Source of the DNA: a virus
Lineage: Duplodnaviria > Caudoviricetes
DNA length: 64,000 bases
Reading direction: 5' to 3' (one strand)
Virus record (IMG/VR): IMGVR_UViG_3300031994_000064
Coordinates: 1-64,000 of that record
The notes beneath the pieces are model-generated. The model had not been told where the DNA came from, searched no databases, and saw nothing but the letters and a program-made list of their open reading frames with translations. A program made the translations under genes and the position numbers. Shown in pieces: positions 7,763 to 41,813 of this stretch; position 1 is the stretch's first letter; every line of letters begins with the position of its first letter.

Positions 7763-7836
7763 AGCCACGTAGTTCAGTTGGTTAGAACGGAGTGACATAT
7801 GTCGAGCGGTCGCGGGTTCGAGTCCCGCCGTGGCTT
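7763..7836 (+). tRNA. tRNA-like gene or pseudo-tRNA without a canonical anticodon arm
   Basis: Acceptor AGCCACG/CGTGGCT, D-arm GTTC/GAAC and T-arm GCGGG-TTCGAGT-CCCGC are canonical; positions 27-43 (GAGTG-ACATATG-TCGAG) cannot form the normal 5-bp stem. Confidence 0.65.
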
Positions 7837-15681: not shown

Positions 15682-15860
15682 AACGCCCCGCAACGAGTGT
15701 CGCGGAGCGTTCTTTTACTCGAACCTTGCCACCCCTCGGTTAAGAGGGGCGAAAGCAGACGCAAGGTGTATGAACATTTGAGTATATTTCTATCCTAAAC
15801 TGTTATCATTTCACGGTACGGCTGCTTTTCCGTTACTCGTCAAAAGACGCGGCAAAGATA
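15682..15860 (-). promoter_or_regulatory. Promoter (TATCTTTG 15853-15860) plus structured attenuator-like leader
   Basis: Nested hairpin 15724-15766, then hairpin 15682-15711 followed by TGGTTTT on the minus strand. Confidence 0.55.
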
Positions 15861-18244: not shown

Positions 18245-18969
18245 AGCGATGGGTTAAATACAACCTTGGAACTGATGGCTATGGCTATGGTGGTGGCTCT
18301 GGCTATGGCTCTGGCTCTGGCTATGGCTCTGGCTATGGCTCTGGCTATGGCTATGGCGATGGCTCTGGCTCTGGCTATGGCTCTGGCACTGGCGATGGCT
18401 CTGGCTCTGGCTATGGCTCTGGCTCTGGCTCTGGCTATGGCTCTGGCGATGGCTCTGGCTCTGGCGATGGCGATGGCTCTGGCGATGGCGATGGCTGTTT
18501 GAGTACTTATTGTGGAAAAAAAGTGCATTATATAGACGGTATACCCACTGTCATTCACTCCATACGCGGTGCTTTCGCTAAAGCGGGTGTTATACAAAAG
18601 GATTTCACCGAAAAGCCATGCTATTTGGCAAAAGGTAAAGGATTTTTTGCACATGGTGAGACCGTGAAGGAAGCCGCCACTGCACTGGAAGCGAAAATTG
18701 CCGAGAATAAACCGATTGAATTAAGGATTGAGCGTTTCGTGCAGAAATATCCGACCATTGACAGTGTGGCCGAGAACAAGGAATTGTTCATTTGGCACCA
18801 CATTTTAACGGGCAGCTGCGAGTTCGGCAGACGCGAGTTTGCGAAGAAACATGACATAGATGTGGAGCATGGCAGAATGACCGTTTGCAGATTCATTGAG
18901 TTGACCGAAGAAGAATATAGTGGAAGAATAATAGCTTTGTTAAAGCAAAAATACGAAAAATCGAATTAA
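18232..18969 (+). CDS. Protein with Gly/Ser/Tyr/Asp hexanucleotide-repeat tract and conserved C-terminal domain
   Basis: GYGSGSG low-complexity block followed by ...WHHILTGSCEFGRREF. Confidence 0.8.
   Translation: MEAIERWVKYNLGTDGYGYGGGSGYGSGSGYGSGYGSGYGYGDGSGSGYGSGTGDGSGSGYGSGSGSGYGSGDGSGSGDGDGSGDGDGCLSTYCGKKVHYIDGIPTVIHSIRGAFAKAGVIQKDFTEKPCYLAKGKGFFAHGETVKEAATALEAKIAENKPIELRIERFVQKYPTIDSVAENKELFIWHHILTGSCEFGRREFAKKHDIDVEHGRMTVCRFIELTEEEYSGRIIALLKQKYEKSN
18277..18494 (+). repeat. In-frame GGCTCT/GGCTAT/GGCGAT hexamer minisatellite
   Basis: Directly visible tandem hexamers. Confidence 0.9.
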
Positions 18970-18978
18970 AACAACAAT

Positions 18979-19054
18979 AAATCACCTTACGTGGTATGGG
19001 TAGAGGACGTGGAATGGTCGGCATTGGCTGACACGTTGAAGCGTCAATCTATTT
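18979..19054 (+). mobile_element. Orphan copy A of the TnpB right-end/omegaRNA 3' module
   Basis: 69/76 identical to 25245-25320 (reverse complement), aligned by hand. Confidence 0.85.
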
Positions 19055-19084
19055 AACAAAAAAAATAAAACAACGTAGAACAAT

Positions 19085-19585
19085 ATGTTTCAGATAGAAG
19101 GCATTTTAAGAGAAATCACGCCGGTGCAGTCCGGCACATCGGCACAAGGAAACTCGTGGCAACGCTGCGAGGCAATCGTAGAAGCACAAGACGGTCAATA
19201 TGTCACAACCTACGTCTTCACCGTCTTCAACAAAGACATCACAATCCACGTAGGCTCTACCGTGGTATGCGACTTTTATGTAAAATCACAGAACTACAAC
19301 GGAAAGTGGTTCACAAATCTGAATTTGTTTAAGATGGAGCCAAGCGTCCAACAGCCGACATACCAACCTCCGGCACAGCCGCAGTACAACAACCAAGGCT
19401 ATCAGCAGCCGATGCAGCAGCAACCGAGACGGCAACCCGCACCGCAGATGCCCGCGCAACCCGTAAGACCGACACCCGCACCAGCACCGCAGCAATACCA
19501 GCAACCGCAGATGCCGCCGATGCCGACTGCACCCGTGCCGAAACAAGGCGCGTCCGTTGAGGAGGTCAACGACCTGCCGTTCTAA
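19085..19585 (+). CDS. DUF3127-like single-stranded DNA-binding protein
   Basis: OB-fold-like N-terminus (SGTSAQGNSWQR), Gln/Pro-rich linker, SSB-type DLPF tail. Confidence 0.8.
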   Translation: MFQIEGILREITPVQSGTSAQGNSWQRCEAIVEAQDGQYVTTYVFTVFNKDITIHVGSTVVCDFYVKSQNYNGKWFTNLNLFKMEPSVQQPTYQPPAQPQYNNQGYQQPMQQQPRRQPAPQMPAQPVRPTPAPAPQQYQQPQMPPMPTAPVPKQGASVEEVNDLPF

Positions 19586-20790: not shown

Positions 20791-20877
20791 AGAGAGGTGG
20801 CCGAGTGGCTGAAGGCGGCGGTCTTGAAAACCGTTGGGGTGTAACAATCTCCGTGGGTTCGAATCCCACTCTCTCTG
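20791..20877 (+). tRNA. tRNA-Ser (anticodon TGA)
   Basis: Full class II cloverleaf: AGAGAGG/TCTCTCT, GCGGT-CTTGAAA-ACCGT, long variable arm, GTGGG-TTCGAAT-CCCAC, G73. Confidence 0.95.
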
Positions 20878-23951: not shown

Positions 23952-23959
23952 TATTTTTG
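23952..23959 (+). promoter_or_regulatory. Sigma -7 element driving the tRNA(CAT)
   Basis: TATTTTTG ending 17 nt before the tRNA 5' end. Confidence 0.65.
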
Positions 23960-23975
23960 CCGCGTGAAAGACGAT

Positions 23976-24049
23976 GGCGGGGTGGCGCAGATGGTAGCGC
24001 GTGAGAATCATAGTCTCAAGGTCAGTGTGTTCAAGTCCACTCCCCGCTA
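23976..24049 (+). tRNA. tRNA with CAT anticodon (Met or Ile2), extra T in the T-stem
   Basis: GGCGGGG/CCCCGCT acceptor, GCGC/GCGC D-stem, TGAGA-ATCATAG-TCTCA, AGTG(T)G-TTCAAGT-CCACT. Confidence 0.8.
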
Positions 24050-24921: not shown

Positions 24922-25212
24922 TTATCTTTGTGTTTCAATCTTTATTCCGAGTTTAAGCGCGATGAAATGCTCAAGTTTCGCACCATGAGAGGCTTTCCAC
25001 CCTTTGAGCATATAGATGCCGTCGCAATTGACGAGCAAAGGAATCACTGTCTGCATACATTTCTTCCAAGACCATGACACATTGCAGTGCTTTGTAGGGT
25101 TCACGGGTTCGTCTCCGCGAGAATACAAGAACTCTTCTGCTTTTGCGAAATTGTCCATCGCCTGCTCATAGGGCAAACCGCTGACTTGACCTGCAATATA
25201 AATTTTACTCAC
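24922..25212 (-). CDS. DUF4406 (nucleoside deoxyribosyltransferase-like) protein
   Basis: KIYIAGQVSG...PVNP...CDGIYMLKGW..S.GA.LEH. Confidence 0.8.
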   Translation of the reverse strand: MSKIYIAGQVSGLPYEQAMDNFAKAEEFLYSRGDEPVNPTKHCNVSWSWKKCMQTVIPLLVNCDGIYMLKGWKASHGAKLEHFIALKLGIKIETQR

Positions 25213-25227
25213 GTGATTTCTCCTTTC

Positions 25228-26436
25228 TTATTTTGTTAATAATGAAATAGATTGACGTTTCATCGTGTCAGCCAATTCCGACCACTCCGCGTCCTCTACC
25301 CCTACCACGTAGGGTGATTTATTGTTGTTTGTTAAATTCTGTTCTTGCAAACCGAATCTTAGAATGTTCACGGCGGCGAGCAAGTCCCTGTCATTGTCGC
25401 GACCGCATGACGGGCACACCCATCTTCGCTGTGACAGCTTCAAGTCTTTGTAAACGCTACCGCACAAGCACATCTTTGAACTCGGCTCGAAACGCCCGAT
25501 GCGCACAAGGTTTTTGCCGTACCAATCGCATTTATATTGCAACTGTCTGAAAAATTCAGACCACGCAACAGAGCTTATGCTTTTGGCGAGGCAATGGTTT
25601 TTAAGCATTCCGTCCACATTCAAGTCCTCAACGACTATGGTTTGGTTCTCACGCACAATCTTCGATGTTACTTGGTGAATAAAATTGGTACGCTTGTTTC
25701 TTATGCGCTCATGCTGTTTTGCGACTGCAAGTTTTGCGCGTTCTCTGCGTTTGCTGCCTTTCTGCTTTTTCGCAAGCCGTCTTTGCAGCACTTTGAGACG
25801 CTTTTCCTCTTTTTCAAGAAATTTAGGATTCTCGAACACTTGACCGTTTGAAAGCACGGCAAAATCCTTGATGCCAACGTCTATACCAACCGATGTATTA
25901 AAATCAATCATCGGCTTTTCGGGCATCGGCTTGCCGTCATCAACGGTTATAGATATATAGTATTTGTTAGTCGGCGATTTAGAAACGGTGCAAGTACCAA
26001 TTTTTCCTACAAAAGTTCTGTCGCAGGCAAACTTCACCTTGCCGACTTTTGGCATCTTAACACGCTTATTATCAAAATCAACGAATACGCAGTCAACAAA
26101 CTGAAACGAGTTTCTGTTTCTTTTCTTTGACTTGAATTTCGGGAAACCTTTCTTTTCTCTGAAAAAGCGGGTAAACGCGGCATCCATATTGCGTATTGAC
26201 GATTGCAGAGATTGATTTGAAACCTCGGACAGCCATTCTGTCTCTTCTTGTTTTTTAAGGCTTGTGAGTTCTTTTGCGATAGACACATAGCTGAGCCTTT
26301 CGCCGCTGTTTTGGTATGTTTCAATCCTTCTCTGCAACGCCCAATTATAGACATATCGGCAGCAGCCAAACGATTTCTCAAAAAAAGTCGCTTGTTCCGC
26401 TGTTGGGTATAGCCTATATTTGTACGATTTAATCAT
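25228..26436 (-). CDS. tnpB: TnpB RNA-guided endonuclease (IS200/IS605)
   Basis: MIKSYKYRLYPT HTH, RuvC GIDVGIKD / IVVEDL / DRDLLAAVNI, zinc finger; probable start ATG 26436 just after TATATTTG (26441-26448). Confidence 0.95.
   Translation of the reverse strand: MIKSYKYRLYPTAEQATFFEKSFGCCRYVYNWALQRRIETYQNSGERLSYVSIAKELTSLKKQEETEWLSEVSNQSLQSSIRNMDAAFTRFFREKKGFPKFKSKKRNRNSFQFVDCVFVDFDNKRVKMPKVGKVKFACDRTFVGKIGTCTVSKSPTNKYYISITVDDGKPMPEKPMIDFNTSVGIDVGIKDFAVLSNGQVFENPKFLEKEEKRLKVLQRRLAKKQKGSKRRERAKLAVAKQHERIRNKRTNFIHQVTSKIVRENQTIVVEDLNVDGMLKNHCLAKSISSVAWSEFFRQLQYKCDWYGKNLVRIGRFEPSSKMCLCGSVYKDLKLSQRRWVCPSCGRDNDRDLLAAVNILRFGLQEQNLTNNNKSPYVVGVEDAEWSELADTMKRQSISLLTK
25245..25320 (-). ncRNA. TnpB right end / omegaRNA 3' scaffold ending in GTCAA, followed by flank-derived guide
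   Basis: Overlaps the tnpB 3' end; two hairpins; TCAA boundary at 25252-25255. Confidence 0.7.
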
Positions 26437-26574
26437 GCCGCAAATATACAAAAAAATTAAATACAAACGGGCTTAATTTTTATAAAAGCTTTTTTTTAAA
26501 AATATCAAAATAGTTGTATCAACATATTGATTTTTCATTTATAAAAAATCATGAGCCTTTGCCATACTATTTTT

Positions 26575-30600: not shown

Positions 30601-33600
30601 TGATATAATTTATCATATCTTGAAGAGTGTGGAACTGAGTACCCATCAACTGATTCATTCTCGTCTTAATAACCTCTTCTTCGATTTGATTCTTCTTTCC
30701 TCTTTCTATAAGTTTTAAGTATTCTTGGTACTTCTGAACCTCGTCTTTGAAAGTTTTTTCTTTCTCTTTTTCTCCTCCGACGGCATCTTGGACGGCTTTT
30801 ACTATTCTCATTGCCGTTTCAAGTTCGTTTTTTCGTTCTTCGTTGACTTGTTGCAGCGGGTCTATCAATGCCTGTTCTGCCTCTACTTGAGTTCCTATAA
30901 AGTCGGGTAAATCGCCAGTTCTTTTTATTTCAACATCATATACAAGTGTTCTTACATATCCGTTTTCGTCTGAATTTGCTATATCGTCAATAAGACGCTG
31001 AAGGTTTGTGTTTGTTGCATCCGTTTTTGCTTTCTGCGCTTCAAATATAATAGTAGCGGTGTATGACTTGTCAAGATCTAATATGTCAGAAACAAGGTCT
31101 GGCATATTTTGTTTTGCAAATTCACCAGCGTCTGCGAAAGCATCAATCACAGCGGATATTTTTGTTTGTACTGCTTTTTTGTATTCTTCTTCTGTTCCAA
31201 CAAAATCGTCTGGGCTTATAACTTTTTTGATTGCTGGTTCAAGTTCTTTTTTTGCGTTTGCAAGTGCTTTCTTGTAAGAACTTGTAAACTTTGTCAAATC
31301 TGTTACTGCGTTTTTTAGAAACGTATTTTCTGCCTCAGAAAGACCTTGAACGCTTCTGCCTCCAAGTGTTATGTTTTGAGCATTTGTGGTTATTCCAGCC
31401 ATAATTTGCATTCGCTCAAGTCTGGCAATCTTCCATTGCTCGTTTGTCATTTTGTATTTTTTGACAGCTTCTTCTTCGTTTTTTGAGAAAGCCTCATCTA
31501 TTTCACGAAGGTTATCTACCATCTTTTTTTGCTCGTCTGAAAGATGCTCATAGTCACCTATGAGCATATTCATCATATTTTGGTATCCCAAAGAAGCGTT
31601 TGCAAACTCAAGGTTTGTTGCGTTTAGCTTTTCAAGAGCCTCGTTTACATCAACAGAATATAATGCTGATTTGTACAAAAGAACTTGATGTGTGTATTCT
31701 TCAATCTGCTTACTCGCGCTTTCAAAATTCTTGTCTATGTTAGATTGAGTTATGTTTTCGTCTATCTCCAAAGCCATCTTATACTCTTTGGCTTTTTCGA
31801 TAAGTTGTTGTAACAAAGCAATACGACCGCTAAATGTTTTGTCTTTGCTATATGCTTGTTCAATCGTTTTCATTTCAGACATCCTTTTGTTGTACTCGGA
31901 AATCTCTTCAACAAGAGAACGCTGTATTTCTTCTCTTTTTGCTTTTGCCTCCTGATGTCTTGCCAAAAAGAAAGCAAAAGCTGCGGCGGCTGCTTGTATC
32001 CCTATTGTGAGCGCGTTCATCCCAATTTTTGCATTCCATATAGATGTAGTCAGTGCTGTAAATCTTGTGGAACCTAACGCACGTGCAACGACCCATCCTT
32101 CTTTTAATGAAATAGCTAAACTTTTTGCTCCACTTGTAATAGCCGCAAAATTACGAATCAGTTTTACAAACAAAGCAGAACCAGCCCAAGCCACCATTAT
32201 TGAAATTACTTCACGTAAATGTCTAATAAAAAACTGAATTGTAGTTATCACTTTTAGAAGCACCCCAGATGTAGATGTTCCGATTTTGTTCATCGAAATC
32301 TGGAACAAGTCTCCGAGTTTCTGCAACTGCCCGTAAAGCGTCTGTGACTGAATCAGCTGCATATTGTAGAACTCGCCACCGCTTTGAGTCATGCGTTTCA
32401 GCACCGCGTCAACGTCTTCAAACAGCACTTTTCGCTTTGAAACGCTGTCGAAAATCTCGTTGATAGACATGTTGATGTTCTTTGTTTCGCGGTAATACTC
32501 TTGCAGTCCGCCGAGAATGTTCACACCCGCTTCGGAGAACTGACGCAACTCTTGACCGCGCAGATAGTTTGCCGCTTTTACCTGCCCATAAGCAAGGATA
32601 AGTCTGTCCATATCAACACCGACACCGACAGCAATATCTCCAAGCATCTTCAAAGAATCATACAAATTGGTTGTTTCAATACGGAAAGCCGCCAACTGCT
32701 TTGCATAGCGGTTCAAGTCCATGAATTTCATTGGAGATTCGACCGCCAAAGACTGCATTTGCTTGAACAACACGTTCGCCTCTCTCGTGTTTTGAATAAT
32801 TGCACCCAATGCGCGTTGTTGCAACTGAAACTCTGCTGTTATTTTGTAAAGCTGCTTGACAAAGTTTGTAGCACCAAACACACCTGTCATAACTCCGAAA
32901 GACATTGCGAGTTGTTCAACCATGCTTTTTGACTTTGAAAAAGCGGATGAAAGCCTGTCTGCAATGTTGGCGTTTCTGCCAAGCATAAACTCCAAACTTT
33001 TGATTTGCTGACCGAGTTTAGCGTATTCTTGCTGACCTTTTTTCGTTGCAAGATTGCAGTTCTCTTGGGCGGCACGAAGCCCAGCAAGCGCGTTGTTAAT
33101 GCGCTTGATAGATTTTTCTTGCTTAAGGTACTCTTGAATCGCAGATTTGTCTCCTGTCAAAACTTTTTCTTCTTGTATTTGCTCAAGAGTCTTTTGAAGA
33201 GACTTTGCGTTTTTTAATATTTGTTCTTCGTTTTTTAATGTTTTTGACGCTTCGTCTGACGCTTTTTTTTGAGCATCAGCTTGACCTTTTGTTGCGCTTG
33301 CGGCTTGCGATGCGCTTTGTGCCGTATGCTGTTGGGCGTTTGCGGTTTGTTGAGCGTAAACAGAACTTTGTTTTAACGAATTTAAGATTGTGGTTGCAGC
33401 AATAGCACCTGCTTGCGCACTTGCGTTTTGAACTTTGTTTAACTGTTCAATTACGTTTGTCATTCCAAGTTCGCTTGCCGTACCTTTAAGCGTCCTTAAC
33501 TGCTCAATAAGAGCTTGAAAACTTTTAACAGCTTCGGCGTTCCCACTACCAATTTGTTTTCTAAAATCTTCAAGTATTTTGCTCGTGGACTGAAGGTCGC

Positions 33601-39273: not shown

Positions 39274-39957
39274 CTACTCGCCTTGTTCGGCTTTCAAGGC
39301 TTCTCCTGCGGCTTTGATGGTTTCCTTGATTTTTTCAAGGTGGCTTGCCGAGCCTGCGCCGCGAGGTGTCAAGTCGTCGTCTTCGGGCATTTCCGAGAAG
39401 AACTCGTTGTACATCTCAAGGTAGCTTTCGGCTTCCGCTTCGATGTCGGTGTTCTCGTCAATCTTCGCCTTGTCGAGCATTGATTTCACCCATTTGTCGT
39501 TCTTGACACCTTTCTTCTTGATTTCGGCGGCAAGCTGTTCGCGTTTCTGACCAATGGTCTTTTTCGTTTCTTCGGCTTGCTTTTCGTCCTCAAGCTTTTT
39601 CAAGCGTTCTTCCAACTTGGCGATGGTCTCGTCTTTCTTGCCGTCATCGTTGCCGACCTCGTCTTTTTTTTTCTTTTTCGCAGGCTCTTCGATTTGCTTT
39701 TTCAGCTCCTCGATTTGCTTGTTAAAATTCTCGGCGAGGGTCGAATTGGCTTTGTTAATGTGACCTTTCTGCGTTTCAAGCATTTTAACGGCTTTTTCCG
39801 CAAAAGCGTCAAGTTCGATTTCGCTGTCTTCACCAACAAGTTCGCATAGGGTCTCTACGTGTTCCTTGATGGTTCGTTCCCAATCGGCGATTTTTTCTAC
39901 CTTTTTTGAGAACATTGCCGTGATTTTTTCACGGGCTTCCTCTTTTGTGAATTTCAC
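39274..39957 (-). CDS. Capsid scaffolding protein (putative)
   Basis: Highly charged coiled-coil protein heading the head operon; GTG start. Confidence 0.65.
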   Translation of the reverse strand: MKFTKEEAREKITAMFSKKVEKIADWERTIKEHVETLCELVGEDSEIELDAFAEKAVKMLETQKGHINKANSTLAENFNKQIEELKKQIEEPAKKKKKDEVGNDDGKKDETIAKLEERLKKLEDEKQAEETKKTIGQKREQLAAEIKKKGVKNDKWVKSMLDKAKIDENTDIEAEAESYLEMYNEFFSEMPEDDDLTPRGAGSASHLEKIKETIKAAGEALKAEQGE

Positions 39958-39979
39958 GTTGTTCTATTTTTTTTAAGTT

Positions 39980-40055
39980 AAATAGATTGACGCTTCATCG
40001 TATCAACCAATGTTGACTACTCCACGTCCTCTACCCCTACCACGTAGGGTGATTT
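39980..40055 (-). mobile_element. Orphan copy C of the TnpB right-end/omegaRNA 3' module
   Basis: 68/76 identical to 25245-25320, with compensatory changes in hairpin 2. Confidence 0.85.
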
Positions 40056-40112
40056 AAGTTAGTTTATGTTTTTATCTTTTTTCAATTTCCTGTTCGTTTT
40101 GGATTAACGCGG

Positions 40113-40189
40113 CAAAAATAACAATTATTTTGTATTTTTTTATTATTCGGAGGGAAAAATCGTCCTATGACGTTTTTTTTGTATTTTTG
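40113..40189. promoter_or_regulatory. Divergent sigma promoter pair (head/tail operon leftward, terminase/portal operon rightward)
   Basis: TATTTTTG at 40113-40120 (minus) and 40182-40189 (plus). Confidence 0.7.
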
Positions 40190-40208
40190 CGGCTGTAAAT
40201 AATACCGA

Positions 40209-41813
40209 ATGTCCGAGATAAAAATCATACGACCGCAAGCTGGATTTCAGGAGAAGTTCTGCCGTACCAATGTGGATTTCTGCATTGGCGGCGGCTTATT
40301 GAACTCTGGCAAGTCGTATGCTTCCGTTTTGGCTTGCGCACAAGCGGTTTCAGACCCGAATTTCCGCGCTTTGTACTTGCGTAACAACCTCGGCGACTTG
40401 AAGGCAGGCGGCGGTATCGCCGATACGTTCAGAGAGATTTTCGGCGAAAGCATAAAGATTGTCGAGTCCGGCGACCCGCACATCAATTTCCCAAGCGGGG
40501 CGGTCATAGACCTCACGCACGTCGCCAACCAAAGCAGAGAAGCAATACGACAGCGTTTCAAAGGACGTCAGTACGATTTGATTGTGTTCGACGAAGGAAC
40601 GGGTTACACTTGGGAATGTCTTACCGAGATTATGACACGTAACCGTGGCAAGGGAAGCTGGACGGGTCACGTGCTTATGACCACCAACCCCGAAAAAGAC
40701 CATTGGATTCGCACGTTCATAGACTGGTACATCGGCGAAGACGGCTACATCAGAGAAGACCGAAACGGTGTGGTGCGCTATTTCTACATCAACGGCGAAA
40801 CCGTCAACGATGTTGTGTGGGGCGACACGAAAGAGGATGTATTCAACAAGTGCCGTGTCGAAATATCGCAGCGTCTGCGCAAAATGAACGGCAAGAAAGA
40901 GATTTTCAAGTGGCAAGACCTCATAAAGTCTTTCACATTCTATCTTGGCAGTATGTCCGAGAACGTAGCGTCCATCAGCGGCAATAGCGGTTATGCGGCA
41001 TCAGTGGCGATGGTCGGCGGTCGTGCCGCCCAGCAATACCTTGAGGGCAACTGGAACGTCAGCACCAAAGGCGACCTAAACTCACCGATACCGCAGGCAC
41101 TCGCAGAATCCGTGTTTGACAACGACCCAATGACCAACGGCGACCGATGGATTACCGCAGACCTCGCCGATACTGGGACAGACAACTTCATTGCGCTTGT
41201 ATGGGACGGCTTTCACGTCTTTGACATGGTTGTAGCAGGAAGAACAACGCCAAGAGAAAATGCGGATATTCTCAAAAACCTGTGCAGCAAACACAAGATA
41301 CCAGAAACAAATGTGATTTTCGACGCGACTGGAGGCGTTTATCTGAAAGACTACATGCCTACCGCGATTGCATATTACTCTAACGCTTCTCCGATGGGCG
41401 TGTACATGAACCGCTATATGAAGCTGAAAGACGAATGCTACGGGCGTTTGTGCACTCTGATAAAAGAACACAGCATTTCTTTCTCCGAAGACCTCGCCAA
41501 CAAGATATACTCGCATCCGCTTTTGAGCGACAAGATAACCATCAAGGAAGAGTTCAAAGAGGAATGCGCGTGCGTGAAGTTCAAGGACGACACCGGCATA
41601 CGCAGGTCGCTGATTACGAAACGAGAGATGAGAAAGCTGCTCGGCAAGTTCCGTTCGCCCGACTTGTTAGACCCTTGCGCGATGCGGATGATGCCCATAT
41701 TGAGATACGCGAACGGCGAGGAACTGATAAAGACAAGCGCGTACCGAAAAGACGATGAAGATGAAATGGATGGACTTACTGTCAACGTGTTCGACGATAC
41801 AACTTGGTGTTAA
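40209..41813 (+). CDS. terL: Terminase large subunit
   Basis: RPQAGFQ adenine-binding motif, Walker A GGGLLNSGKS, Walker B LIVFDEG, coupling motif TTNP, nuclease DLADTGTD ... SPDLLD. Confidence 0.92.
   Translation: MSEIKIIRPQAGFQEKFCRTNVDFCIGGGLLNSGKSYASVLACAQAVSDPNFRALYLRNNLGDLKAGGGIADTFREIFGESIKIVESGDPHINFPSGAVIDLTHVANQSREAIRQRFKGRQYDLIVFDEGTGYTWECLTEIMTRNRGKGSWTGHVLMTTNPEKDHWIRTFIDWYIGEDGYIREDRNGVVRYFYINGETVNDVVWGDTKEDVFNKCRVEISQRLRKMNGKKEIFKWQDLIKSFTFYLGSMSENVASISGNSGYAASVAMVGGRAAQQYLEGNWNVSTKGDLNSPIPQALAESVFDNDPMTNGDRWITADLADTGTDNFIALVWDGFHVFDMVVAGRTTPRENADILKNLCSKHKIPETNVIFDATGGVYLKDYMPTAIAYYSNASPMGVYMNRYMKLKDECYGRLCTLIKEHSISFSEDLANKIYSHPLLSDKITIKEEFKEECACVKFKDDTGIRRSLITKREMRKLLGKFRSPDLLDPCAMRMMPILRYANGEELIKTSAYRKDDEDEMDGLTVNVFDDTTWC

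Follow-up and report, generated by a model that had tools for sequence, protein, structure and literature searches.

A tnpB-less omega-RNA module at a phage scaffold-gene start codon, and its possible spread by guide-only homing

Copy C, a short module in the head-operon leader of a rumen phage, is identified by comparison with its relatives as the predicted complete omega-RNA scaffold and right end of an ISDra2-like, IS605-family tnpB element, without the tnpB gene and the left end. The explanation that we tentatively favour, and that stops somewhat short of being probable, is that copy C is an orphan guide-RNA gene, which a TnpB of the same phage may use in trans for homing. The genome is an 82,983-bp virus record with terminal repeats; the window, by which we mean the whole stretch of DNA presented here, is its first 64 kb.

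The 76 nucleotides at 39980-40055 read, on the minus strand from 40055 to 39980, AAATCACC, CCCTAC-GTG-GTAGGG, GTAGAGGACGTGGAG, GTCAA-CATTGG-TTGAT, ACGATGAAGCGTCAATCTATTT. They are identical to the 3′ end of a tnpB element, copy B (25245-25320, minus strand), at 68 of 76 positions, exactly the figure given by the sequence-only reading, which had called the stretch an orphan TnpB module placed in the 5′ leader of the head operon in the sense direction. Both statements are supported, the module being of the omega-RNA and right-end type. Copy A (18979-19054) matches copy C at 67 and copy B at 69 of the 76 positions. Copy C is called an orphan because no tnpB adjoins it; its upstream neighbour is a divergent terminase gene. 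The three copies counted previously are those of the window, and a covariance-model search of the whole genome returned exactly four, the fourth (D) lying beyond it. Copy C is the best of the four, with 86.1 bits (E 1.8e-20) versus 78.9-85.3 bits for the others. Two of them, B and D, thus belong to intact tnpB elements, and the other two, A and C, are without tnpB.

The repeat extends past both TCAA and TCTATTT, via a third hairpin, to ACGT at 39959-39956, so that the true size of copy C is about 141 nt (40096-39956, minus strand). The scaffold GTG does lie about 30 nt past TCAA (29 nt), as had been stated; the use of TCAA as the boundary did not hold. The module and its surroundings comprise the following features:

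39956..40096, minus strand: inserted orphan module, about 141 nt replacing the 13 nt ACAAGGACAATAT of empty alleles
40057..40096, minus strand: A-rich left arm of uncertain origin, weakly like the last tnpB codons (GAACAG..AATT)
40035..40049, minus strand: stem 1 (formerly hairpin 1), CCCTAC-GTG-GTAGGG; loop nucleotides 40040-40044 are the predicted 5′ strand of a pseudoknot
39989..40028, minus strand: stem 2, which encloses stem 3; GACGT (40024-40028) pairs with GCGTC (39989-39993)
40000..40020, minus strand: stem 3 (formerly hairpin 2); GTCAA (40013-40017) pairs with TTGAT (40002-40006)
39963..39986, minus strand: stem 4, the subterminal right-end hairpin, TCTATTT..AAATAGA
39956..39961, minus strand: element terminus CAACG+T, with CAACG as the predicted 3′ strand of the pseudoknot
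39955..39957, minus strand: scaffold GTG start, with G and T from the element and the last G from the old ATG
39940..39955, minus strand: guide-equivalent 16 nt GAAATTCACAAAAGAG, identical to the sequence after AATAT in the empty relatives L187, L189, L193 and L194
39274..39957, minus strand: scaffold-like gene of 227 aa, first gene of the head operon, with a weak Pfam Phage_scaffold match; homologues were found
40109..40120, minus strand: promoter-like -7 box TATTTTTGCCGC, of the TAnnTTTG type, before the scaffold/capsid operon

The 3′ architecture of the module was established with eighty TnpB relatives taken from viral contigs, from which 24 distinct RNA copies were aligned. Relatives at 61-70% TnpB protein identity have the same 3′ architecture with a different sequence. 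The alignment contains 18 pairs, with 98.4% of the cells paired and seven pairs changed on both sides, and the covariation score is 0.44, compared with at most 0.13 in controls with slid partners; stems 1 to 3 have family-wide support from covariation. The common order is GCGTCAA, then a further hairpin, then a terminal TCACC-T, for which this phage has TCACG-T. Where one element occurs in different contexts, its copies are alike up to the terminal T and diverge directly beyond it; the right end therefore lies about 30 nt past TCAA. In the subfamily the right end is CACG-T (39956-39961 and 25211-25216; L004 1594-1599) rather than the CACC-T of the relatives, a change compensated in the stem-1 loop by G to C. 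With this end, insertion at AT|G would recreate GTG, while the CACC-T of the relatives would create CTG. Searches of Rfam with the element returned no family, either at the gathering score or at E values up to 10.

Stem 1 is unchanged between B and C, as reported earlier, with CCCTAC-GTG-GTAGGG at 40035-40049 identical in B; at up to two mismatches this 15-mer occurs 3 times in the window, versus 0.03 expected. Stem 2 is invariant or wobble-compatible across the 24 sequences. The change of stem 3 from GTCGG..CTGAC in B to GTCAA..TTGAT in C, with all five pairs kept, was confirmed. It consists of G-C to G-U, G-U to A-U and G-C to A-U, that is, one double and two one-sided changes, all of them transitions; in the family this stem has eight pairs, of which four are changed on both sides. 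Stem 4 is found in all family members at the same place with different sequence, and corresponds to the conserved 3′ hairpin described in PMC10278001. It was adopted in place of the outer pairing GUAGA/UCUAU seen in single-sequence minimum-free-energy folds, for which the family shows no conservation.

The loop of stem 1 is predicted to form a pseudoknot with the last five nucleotides, a pairing supported by two independent double changes among the copies: GGTGA/TCACC in most, GGTAA/TTACC in L043 and CGTGG/TCACG in B, D and L005. All five pairs can form in B, D and L005. In A and C, which have CGTGG/CAACG, four of the five pairs remain, with one internal G-A mismatch; one population variant of C has CCACG, giving five pseudoknot pairs.

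The origin of the left arm (40057..40096) is less clear. Local alignments against shuffled sequences gave P of about 0.17 and about 0.04, and its derivation from tnpB 3′ codons, a target duplication or a left-end (LE) remnant was considered, none being convincing against the shuffles. Within the left arm, GAAATTGAAAAAAGA (40075-40089) is identical at 13 of 15 positions to the target sequence that follows the element, GAAATTCACAAAAGA (39941-39955; P about 0.04 versus shuffles). This imperfect direct repeat around the scaffold may be due to chance, to target duplication or to a trace of the insertion mechanism.

The remaining copies are as follows:

25211..26487, minus strand: tnpB element B, with TnpB at 25228-26436, the omega-RNA module at 25211-25344 and a promoter-like box at 26437-26448
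77298-78559, outside the window: tnpB element D, the second tnpB, with its RNA copy at G000 78465-78543
18963..19076, plus strand: orphan copy A, upstream of a DUF3127 gene (ATG at 19085)

The 412-codon frame at 25228-26466 encodes TnpB, with Pfam matches to HTH_OrfB_IS605, OrfB_IS605 and Cas12f1-like_TNB and a match to ISDra2 TnpB at E 1e-79. The RuvC D/E/D residues, in GIDVG, VVEDL and NDRD, align with the catalytic residues of ISDra2. Elements B and D are 91.6% identical, and the second TnpB copy is 94% identical to the first; a look-up of the exact TnpB protein of B returned only site B. In copy A, a U-U mismatch disrupts stem 1, and GTA stands in place of the terminal GTG.

The resemblance to ISDra2 is extensive. 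The TnpB is a close homologue; the RNA has the stem-1 loop pseudoknot, stem 2 around stem 3 and the subterminal stem 4; TnpB has a dispensable C-terminal tail, with which the scaffold overlaps; and the inferred target-adjacent motif (TAM) is of the TTNAT type. In ISDra2, scaffold nucleotides -6 to -2 form the pseudoknot with the stem-1 loop, and activity requires no more than the 116 nt that begin at stem 1; both the RNA further 5′ and the overlapped C-terminal tail of TnpB are dispensable (PMC10097598). A and C, which begin upstream of stem 1 and extend to the terminus, are predicted to hold the whole equivalent of this functional scaffold. By sequence and structure copy C belongs to the ISDra2-type omega-RNA family, and the sole feature of the family that it lacks is attachment to tnpB. 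It differs from ISDra2 in having neither tnpB nor a left end, in standing behind a phage late-operon promoter and in an ACGT end that recreates GTG.

To identify the site before insertion, relatives of the scaffold gene were surveyed via IMG/VR and by a protein search with genomic-context look-ups. Eleven scaffold protein clusters, from 96% to 65% identity, are without the element. These empty lineages have the promoter-like box, TTAATCC, a short lineage-variable leader and then directly the ATG start; in the lineages of 93-96% identity the leader is AAAAACAAGGACAAT. L193 and L194 match the window at every position of the 150 nt upstream and the 35 nt downstream, and differ only in having 13 nt where the window has 141. 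The element end, ACGT, meets the G of the old ATG and yields the GTG at 39957. These alleles show that copy C replaced 13 nt of native leader exactly at the scaffold AT|G, with the start codon rebuilt as GTG.

The same AT|G geometry is common to C, B and D, a conclusion supported by the empty sites. TTTAT and GAGTAAAATT flank element B, at whose site the relative L117 has ATGAGTAAAATT; the flanks of element D are TTCAT and GACGAAAAG, and here L144 has ATGACGAAAAG. The left-flank motifs TTTAT, TTCAT and TTTAT (the last in L005) are akin to the ISDra2 TAM TTGAT, and the motifs before the left ends of relatives are TTAAT, GTAAT or GTGAT. In the empty alleles of site C the guide-equivalent sequence matches at 16 of 16 positions, while the preceding motif, AATAT, fits the inferred TT[T/C]AT at three of five. 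In L197 and L198 (cluster P0042, 65% identity) a perfect TAM-like motif, TTTAT, stands directly before the G of the start codon, followed by a sequence that matches the guide equivalent of C except at positions 10 and 16; this site is empty.

The filled allele is found in the window's own cluster, in contigs of three other studies and in the lineage of L090, L096, L097 and L106 (P0040). The scaffold protein of this last lineage is 65% identical to that of the window and the flanking DNA about 79%, yet the element is identical at 139 of 139 positions, with one change in L096. The chance of such identity is about 6e-15 at flank-like divergence and about 8e-4 even at 95% conservation. Taken with the many closely related alleles that are empty, this identity shows that the orphan moved, already truncated, between lineages; copy C reached the phage lineage by lateral transfer into the homologous site.

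This result bears on the proposal that the structure has been selected. The secondary structure is indeed constrained, as the covariation across the 24 members indicates. Selection of the compensatory changes at this locus is not sustained: an identical copy lies between 79% flanks in another lineage and eleven related lineages are empty, and with lateral transfer of the finished element the hairpin-2 changes came along and are no evidence of selection here. The sequence-only reading had itself named the same variants in full-length tnpB elements as a finding that would speak for inherited covariation. At the family level this is what was found, with A-U/A-U at two of the pairs in the L009 group. 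When IMG/VR and the JGI metagenomes were scanned for exact patterns, no full-length tnpB with the hairpin-2 variant of C emerged; the scans gave only C-type copies at the same site and L005-type tnpB, the other 15 metagenome matches being chance matches in coding DNA. Among the INPHARED phages there was no DNA match to the element or the head region. In four runs the contigs gave no joint for an empty allele.

According to the favoured explanation, the RNA of copy C would be loaded in trans by the two intact TnpB nucleases, whose genes lie at other sites of the genome. The 16 nt that directly follow the element would serve as the guide; related phages have this sequence at their empty site. 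On co-infection, the TnpB-guide complex would cut the empty allele, and repair from the filled genome would copy the module in, a TnpA-independent and non-restorative form of homing. The module would then be a selfish guide-only cassette, any effects on scaffold and capsid expression being a by-product. Independence from TnpA is needed because a search of the whole genome, with positive controls, found no TnpA (Y1, PF01797), although a copy in the host is conceivable. For omega-RNAs carried by the gene-less elements known as PATEs (palindrome-associated transposable elements), use in trans has been proposed (PMC10055086), and TnpA-independent homing has been observed in plasmids and proposed into co-infecting phages (PMC13565253).

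Homing agrees with a homologous site that is filled in some phages and empty in others, and with an element more conserved than its flanks. Several observations argue against it. The AATAT that precedes the target fits the TAM at only three of five positions; the pseudoknots of the orphans are weakened, and stem 1 of copy A has a broken pair. Most sampled relatives are empty despite a perfect target, so any drive must be weak or rarely engaged. In 50 other TnpB-bearing viral records no intact orphan was found: all seven of the strong extra copies examined adjoin tnpB, and the sole orphan is a decayed remnant.

That remnant (39 bits) is common to two phages of 137-151 kb, at G032:C1:98626-98694 (L179 1627-1695) and G035:C1:89915-89983 (L180). 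It has lost stem 1 and carries a clean deletion of stem 4, with TCAA joined to CACC; it occupies the 3′ end of an ORF of 82 codons, and the nearest 1.5 kb contain no tnpB.

Much of the same evidence fits an inert relic. A full tnpB element would have inserted at AT|G, followed by deletion of its left end, the tnpB gene and the native leader, which restored the proximity of promoter and gene; the remainder would be tolerated as an A-rich leader and source of the GTG, and would spread only by homologous recombination via the conserved flanks. The site flanks are highly conserved (24 nt on the left and about 40 nt on the right), and the promoter and N-terminal codons beside the element, nearly invariant across lineages, would serve as homology arms; ordinary phage recombination could thus move the module without any cut. 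A relic would also account for the missing left end, the decay of copy A, the weakened pseudoknot of both orphans, the clearly decayed orphan in two other phages and the many empty relatives. It accounts less well for a copy that scores no lower than any tnpB-linked one and retains every stem through compensating changes. Moreover, the four population variants of C all fall outside the 70-nt core (P about 0.06, suggestive only), and an identical 139 nt amid 79% flanks, a tract barely above the size of the element, needs drive or selection. We regard the inert relic as a serious possibility, still below an even chance, and its likelihood follows close behind that of guide-only homing, making it nearly as likely.

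A comparison of the end of the conversion tract with the expected TnpB cut site was also attempted. The window switches from L090-like to L085-like sequence between +7 and +13; the argument was dropped because closer empty alleles (L193) already have the window's flank, so that donor and tract cannot be fixed.

A further possibility, which we consider very improbable, is a PATE-like non-autonomous transposon, a miniature two-ended element moved by a host-encoded TnpA. Gene-less IS200/IS605 derivatives with omega-RNAs are known (PMC10055086), and AAGAT followed by AAAAAC in the left arm loosely resembles the TAM|LE junctions TTTAT|AAAAAT of B and D. When the left ends of B and D were sought in the left arm of C, however, the match was not significant, 1042 of 2000 shuffles scoring as high; the phage genome has no Y1 transposase, and other phages have the module only at the one homologous site, not scattered. 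Copy C shares with PATEs the character of a gene-less omega-RNA carrier dependent on TnpB in trans. PATEs, in contrast, keep both ends (LE and RE) and move by TnpA. With no left end detectable and spread confined to the homologous site, copy C is neither an insertion sequence nor a PATE.

The position of the module in a leader raises the question of its expression. The TAnnTTTG box at 40109..40120 is of the Bacteroidota -7 type; it is also present in the empty-site relatives, and is conserved in L085 and L187-L200. The extended form TAnnTTTGCSGC occurs six times in the window versus 0.32 expected:

15849-15860, 23952-23963, 26437-26448, 32142-32153, 40109-40120 and 40182-40193: copies of TAnnTTTGCSGC

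The copy at 40182-40193 (plus strand) precedes the terminase gene and another lies in the tnpB left end; one stands right before a tRNA gene (23976), and one within a 2036-codon tape-measure-like ORF. From the position of the -7 box, transcription is predicted to start about 10 nt before the module, which should therefore be transcribed as the 5′ end of the head-operon mRNA. In a sheep-gut metatranscriptome, a contig of depth 58 leads out of the scaffold gene into the element, where it ends at the repeat boundary; in the same sample the spacer 40056-40217 has a depth of about 0 and the terminase side 6.4. The RNA contigs fit transcription of copy C with the head operon; assembled contigs give no end, strand or level, and zero cover in them is no evidence of a transcription start. 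In RNA run X3, at a loose end at 40056, a 1794-nt contig joins stem 1 to a third kind of upstream sequence, TTTGTACGAACAGTCTTTTTCAAACAACAA, which suggests a further tnpB variant of the subfamily in the same rumen sample.

The sequence-only reading had offered a guide scaffold or an exapted cis-regulator as the function of the module. As a regulator, the structured leader, alone or bound by TnpB, would adjust how strongly the scaffold and capsid genes are translated; the ribonucleoprotein would bury the start codon, which occupies guide positions -2 to +1. The sense orientation in a 5′ leader agrees with this, as do the fusion of start codon and element end in B, C and D and the weaker GTG in place of ATG; TnpB is known to process and hold the scaffold-bearing RNA (PMC10278001). 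Eleven related lineages, some of them 96% identical, nevertheless manage without the element, which is thus not needed for head-gene control. The module also stands before unrelated genes (for a DUF3127 protein, a DUF4406 protein and a methylase-like protein), which fits an insertion-site preference better, and an abundant late mRNA would have to be titrated by TnpB. A regulatory role for copy C is unsupported, and we consider exaptation improbable. The guide-scaffold option is the better supported of the two because copy C holds the whole equivalent of the functional ISDra2 scaffold.

The favoured explanation, guide-only homing, has its closest parallel in the homing endonucleases and introns of T-even phages, with their intron and intronless homing and marker exclusion. 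The likeness lies in presence or absence at one homologous site, an element identical across divergent backgrounds, a short conversion tract and, in relatives, a neighbouring terminase gene whose intein contains a homing-endonuclease domain. The difference is that the mobile unit here would be the specificity RNA alone, with the nuclease encoded elsewhere and cleavage putative. In several relatives the large terminase subunit has 883-884 aa (L097 4159-6813; L188, L196), with Hom_end and LAGLIDADG hits that mark an intein with a homing endonuclease, whereas the terminase of the window (40209-41813) has 534 aa; homing elements are therefore active beside site C in this phage group.

TldR systems likewise combine a TnpB-family protein with a guide RNA, possibly at the promoter or start of the target gene, and some are phage-borne. 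The TnpBs of this genome differ in keeping the RuvC D-E-D triad, for which reason this is not a TldR system, and the guide matches its own flank and no distant promoter. Phage-borne mini-CRISPR arrays and solitary repeat units are also viral orphan guide-RNA genes that use an effector encoded elsewhere; they differ in belonging to another RNA family, that of CRISPR repeats with host or phage Cas effectors. In the literature searched, which was incomplete, we found no description of promoter-driven orphan omega-RNA genes without a left end in phage leaders.

TnpB is the ancestor of Cas12, and one may ask how a transposon nuclease with one gene and one guide turned into a system of several independent guides. 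The genome described here offers a natural case in which predicted complete guide scaffolds stand apart from the nuclease gene and the transposon ends, one of them behind a strong phage promoter and moved as a unit from one phage lineage to another. Should TnpB take up these guides in trans, they would provide a testable case of TnpA-independent, RNA-guided homing from virus to virus and a one-nuclease, many-guide intermediate. If the orphans are inert, they are a well-documented example of IS605 remnants reshaping phage leaders. In addition, the alleles with and without the element form a clean set, the structure model includes a covarying pseudoknot, and the data account for insertion at a start codon without loss of the gene.

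A and C might together be guide-only homing or competition cassettes, an idea we consider doubtful. A phage would retain one or two tnpB genes and have additional promoter-driven guides before essential genes, with TnpB cutting the unoccupied sites of co-infecting rivals and so converting or excluding head-gene and replication-gene alleles. If true, this would amount to RNA-programmed intronless homing of the T4 type and a step towards a multi-guide, CRISPR-like arrangement. For copy A, neither IMG/VR nor five related records contained a relative of the DUF3127 gene from which an empty site could be read. An RNA-mediated origin of the orphans via a reverse transcriptase was rejected, the candidate being a mere 14-bit match with internal stops. 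Copy A begins exactly at the end of a 245-codon ORF, inside which lies a 13-copy tandem repeat with 12/18-nt spacing (18246-18532). Three tRNA genes were identified with Rfam, at 7763-7836, 20791-20877 (87 nt) and 23976-24049.
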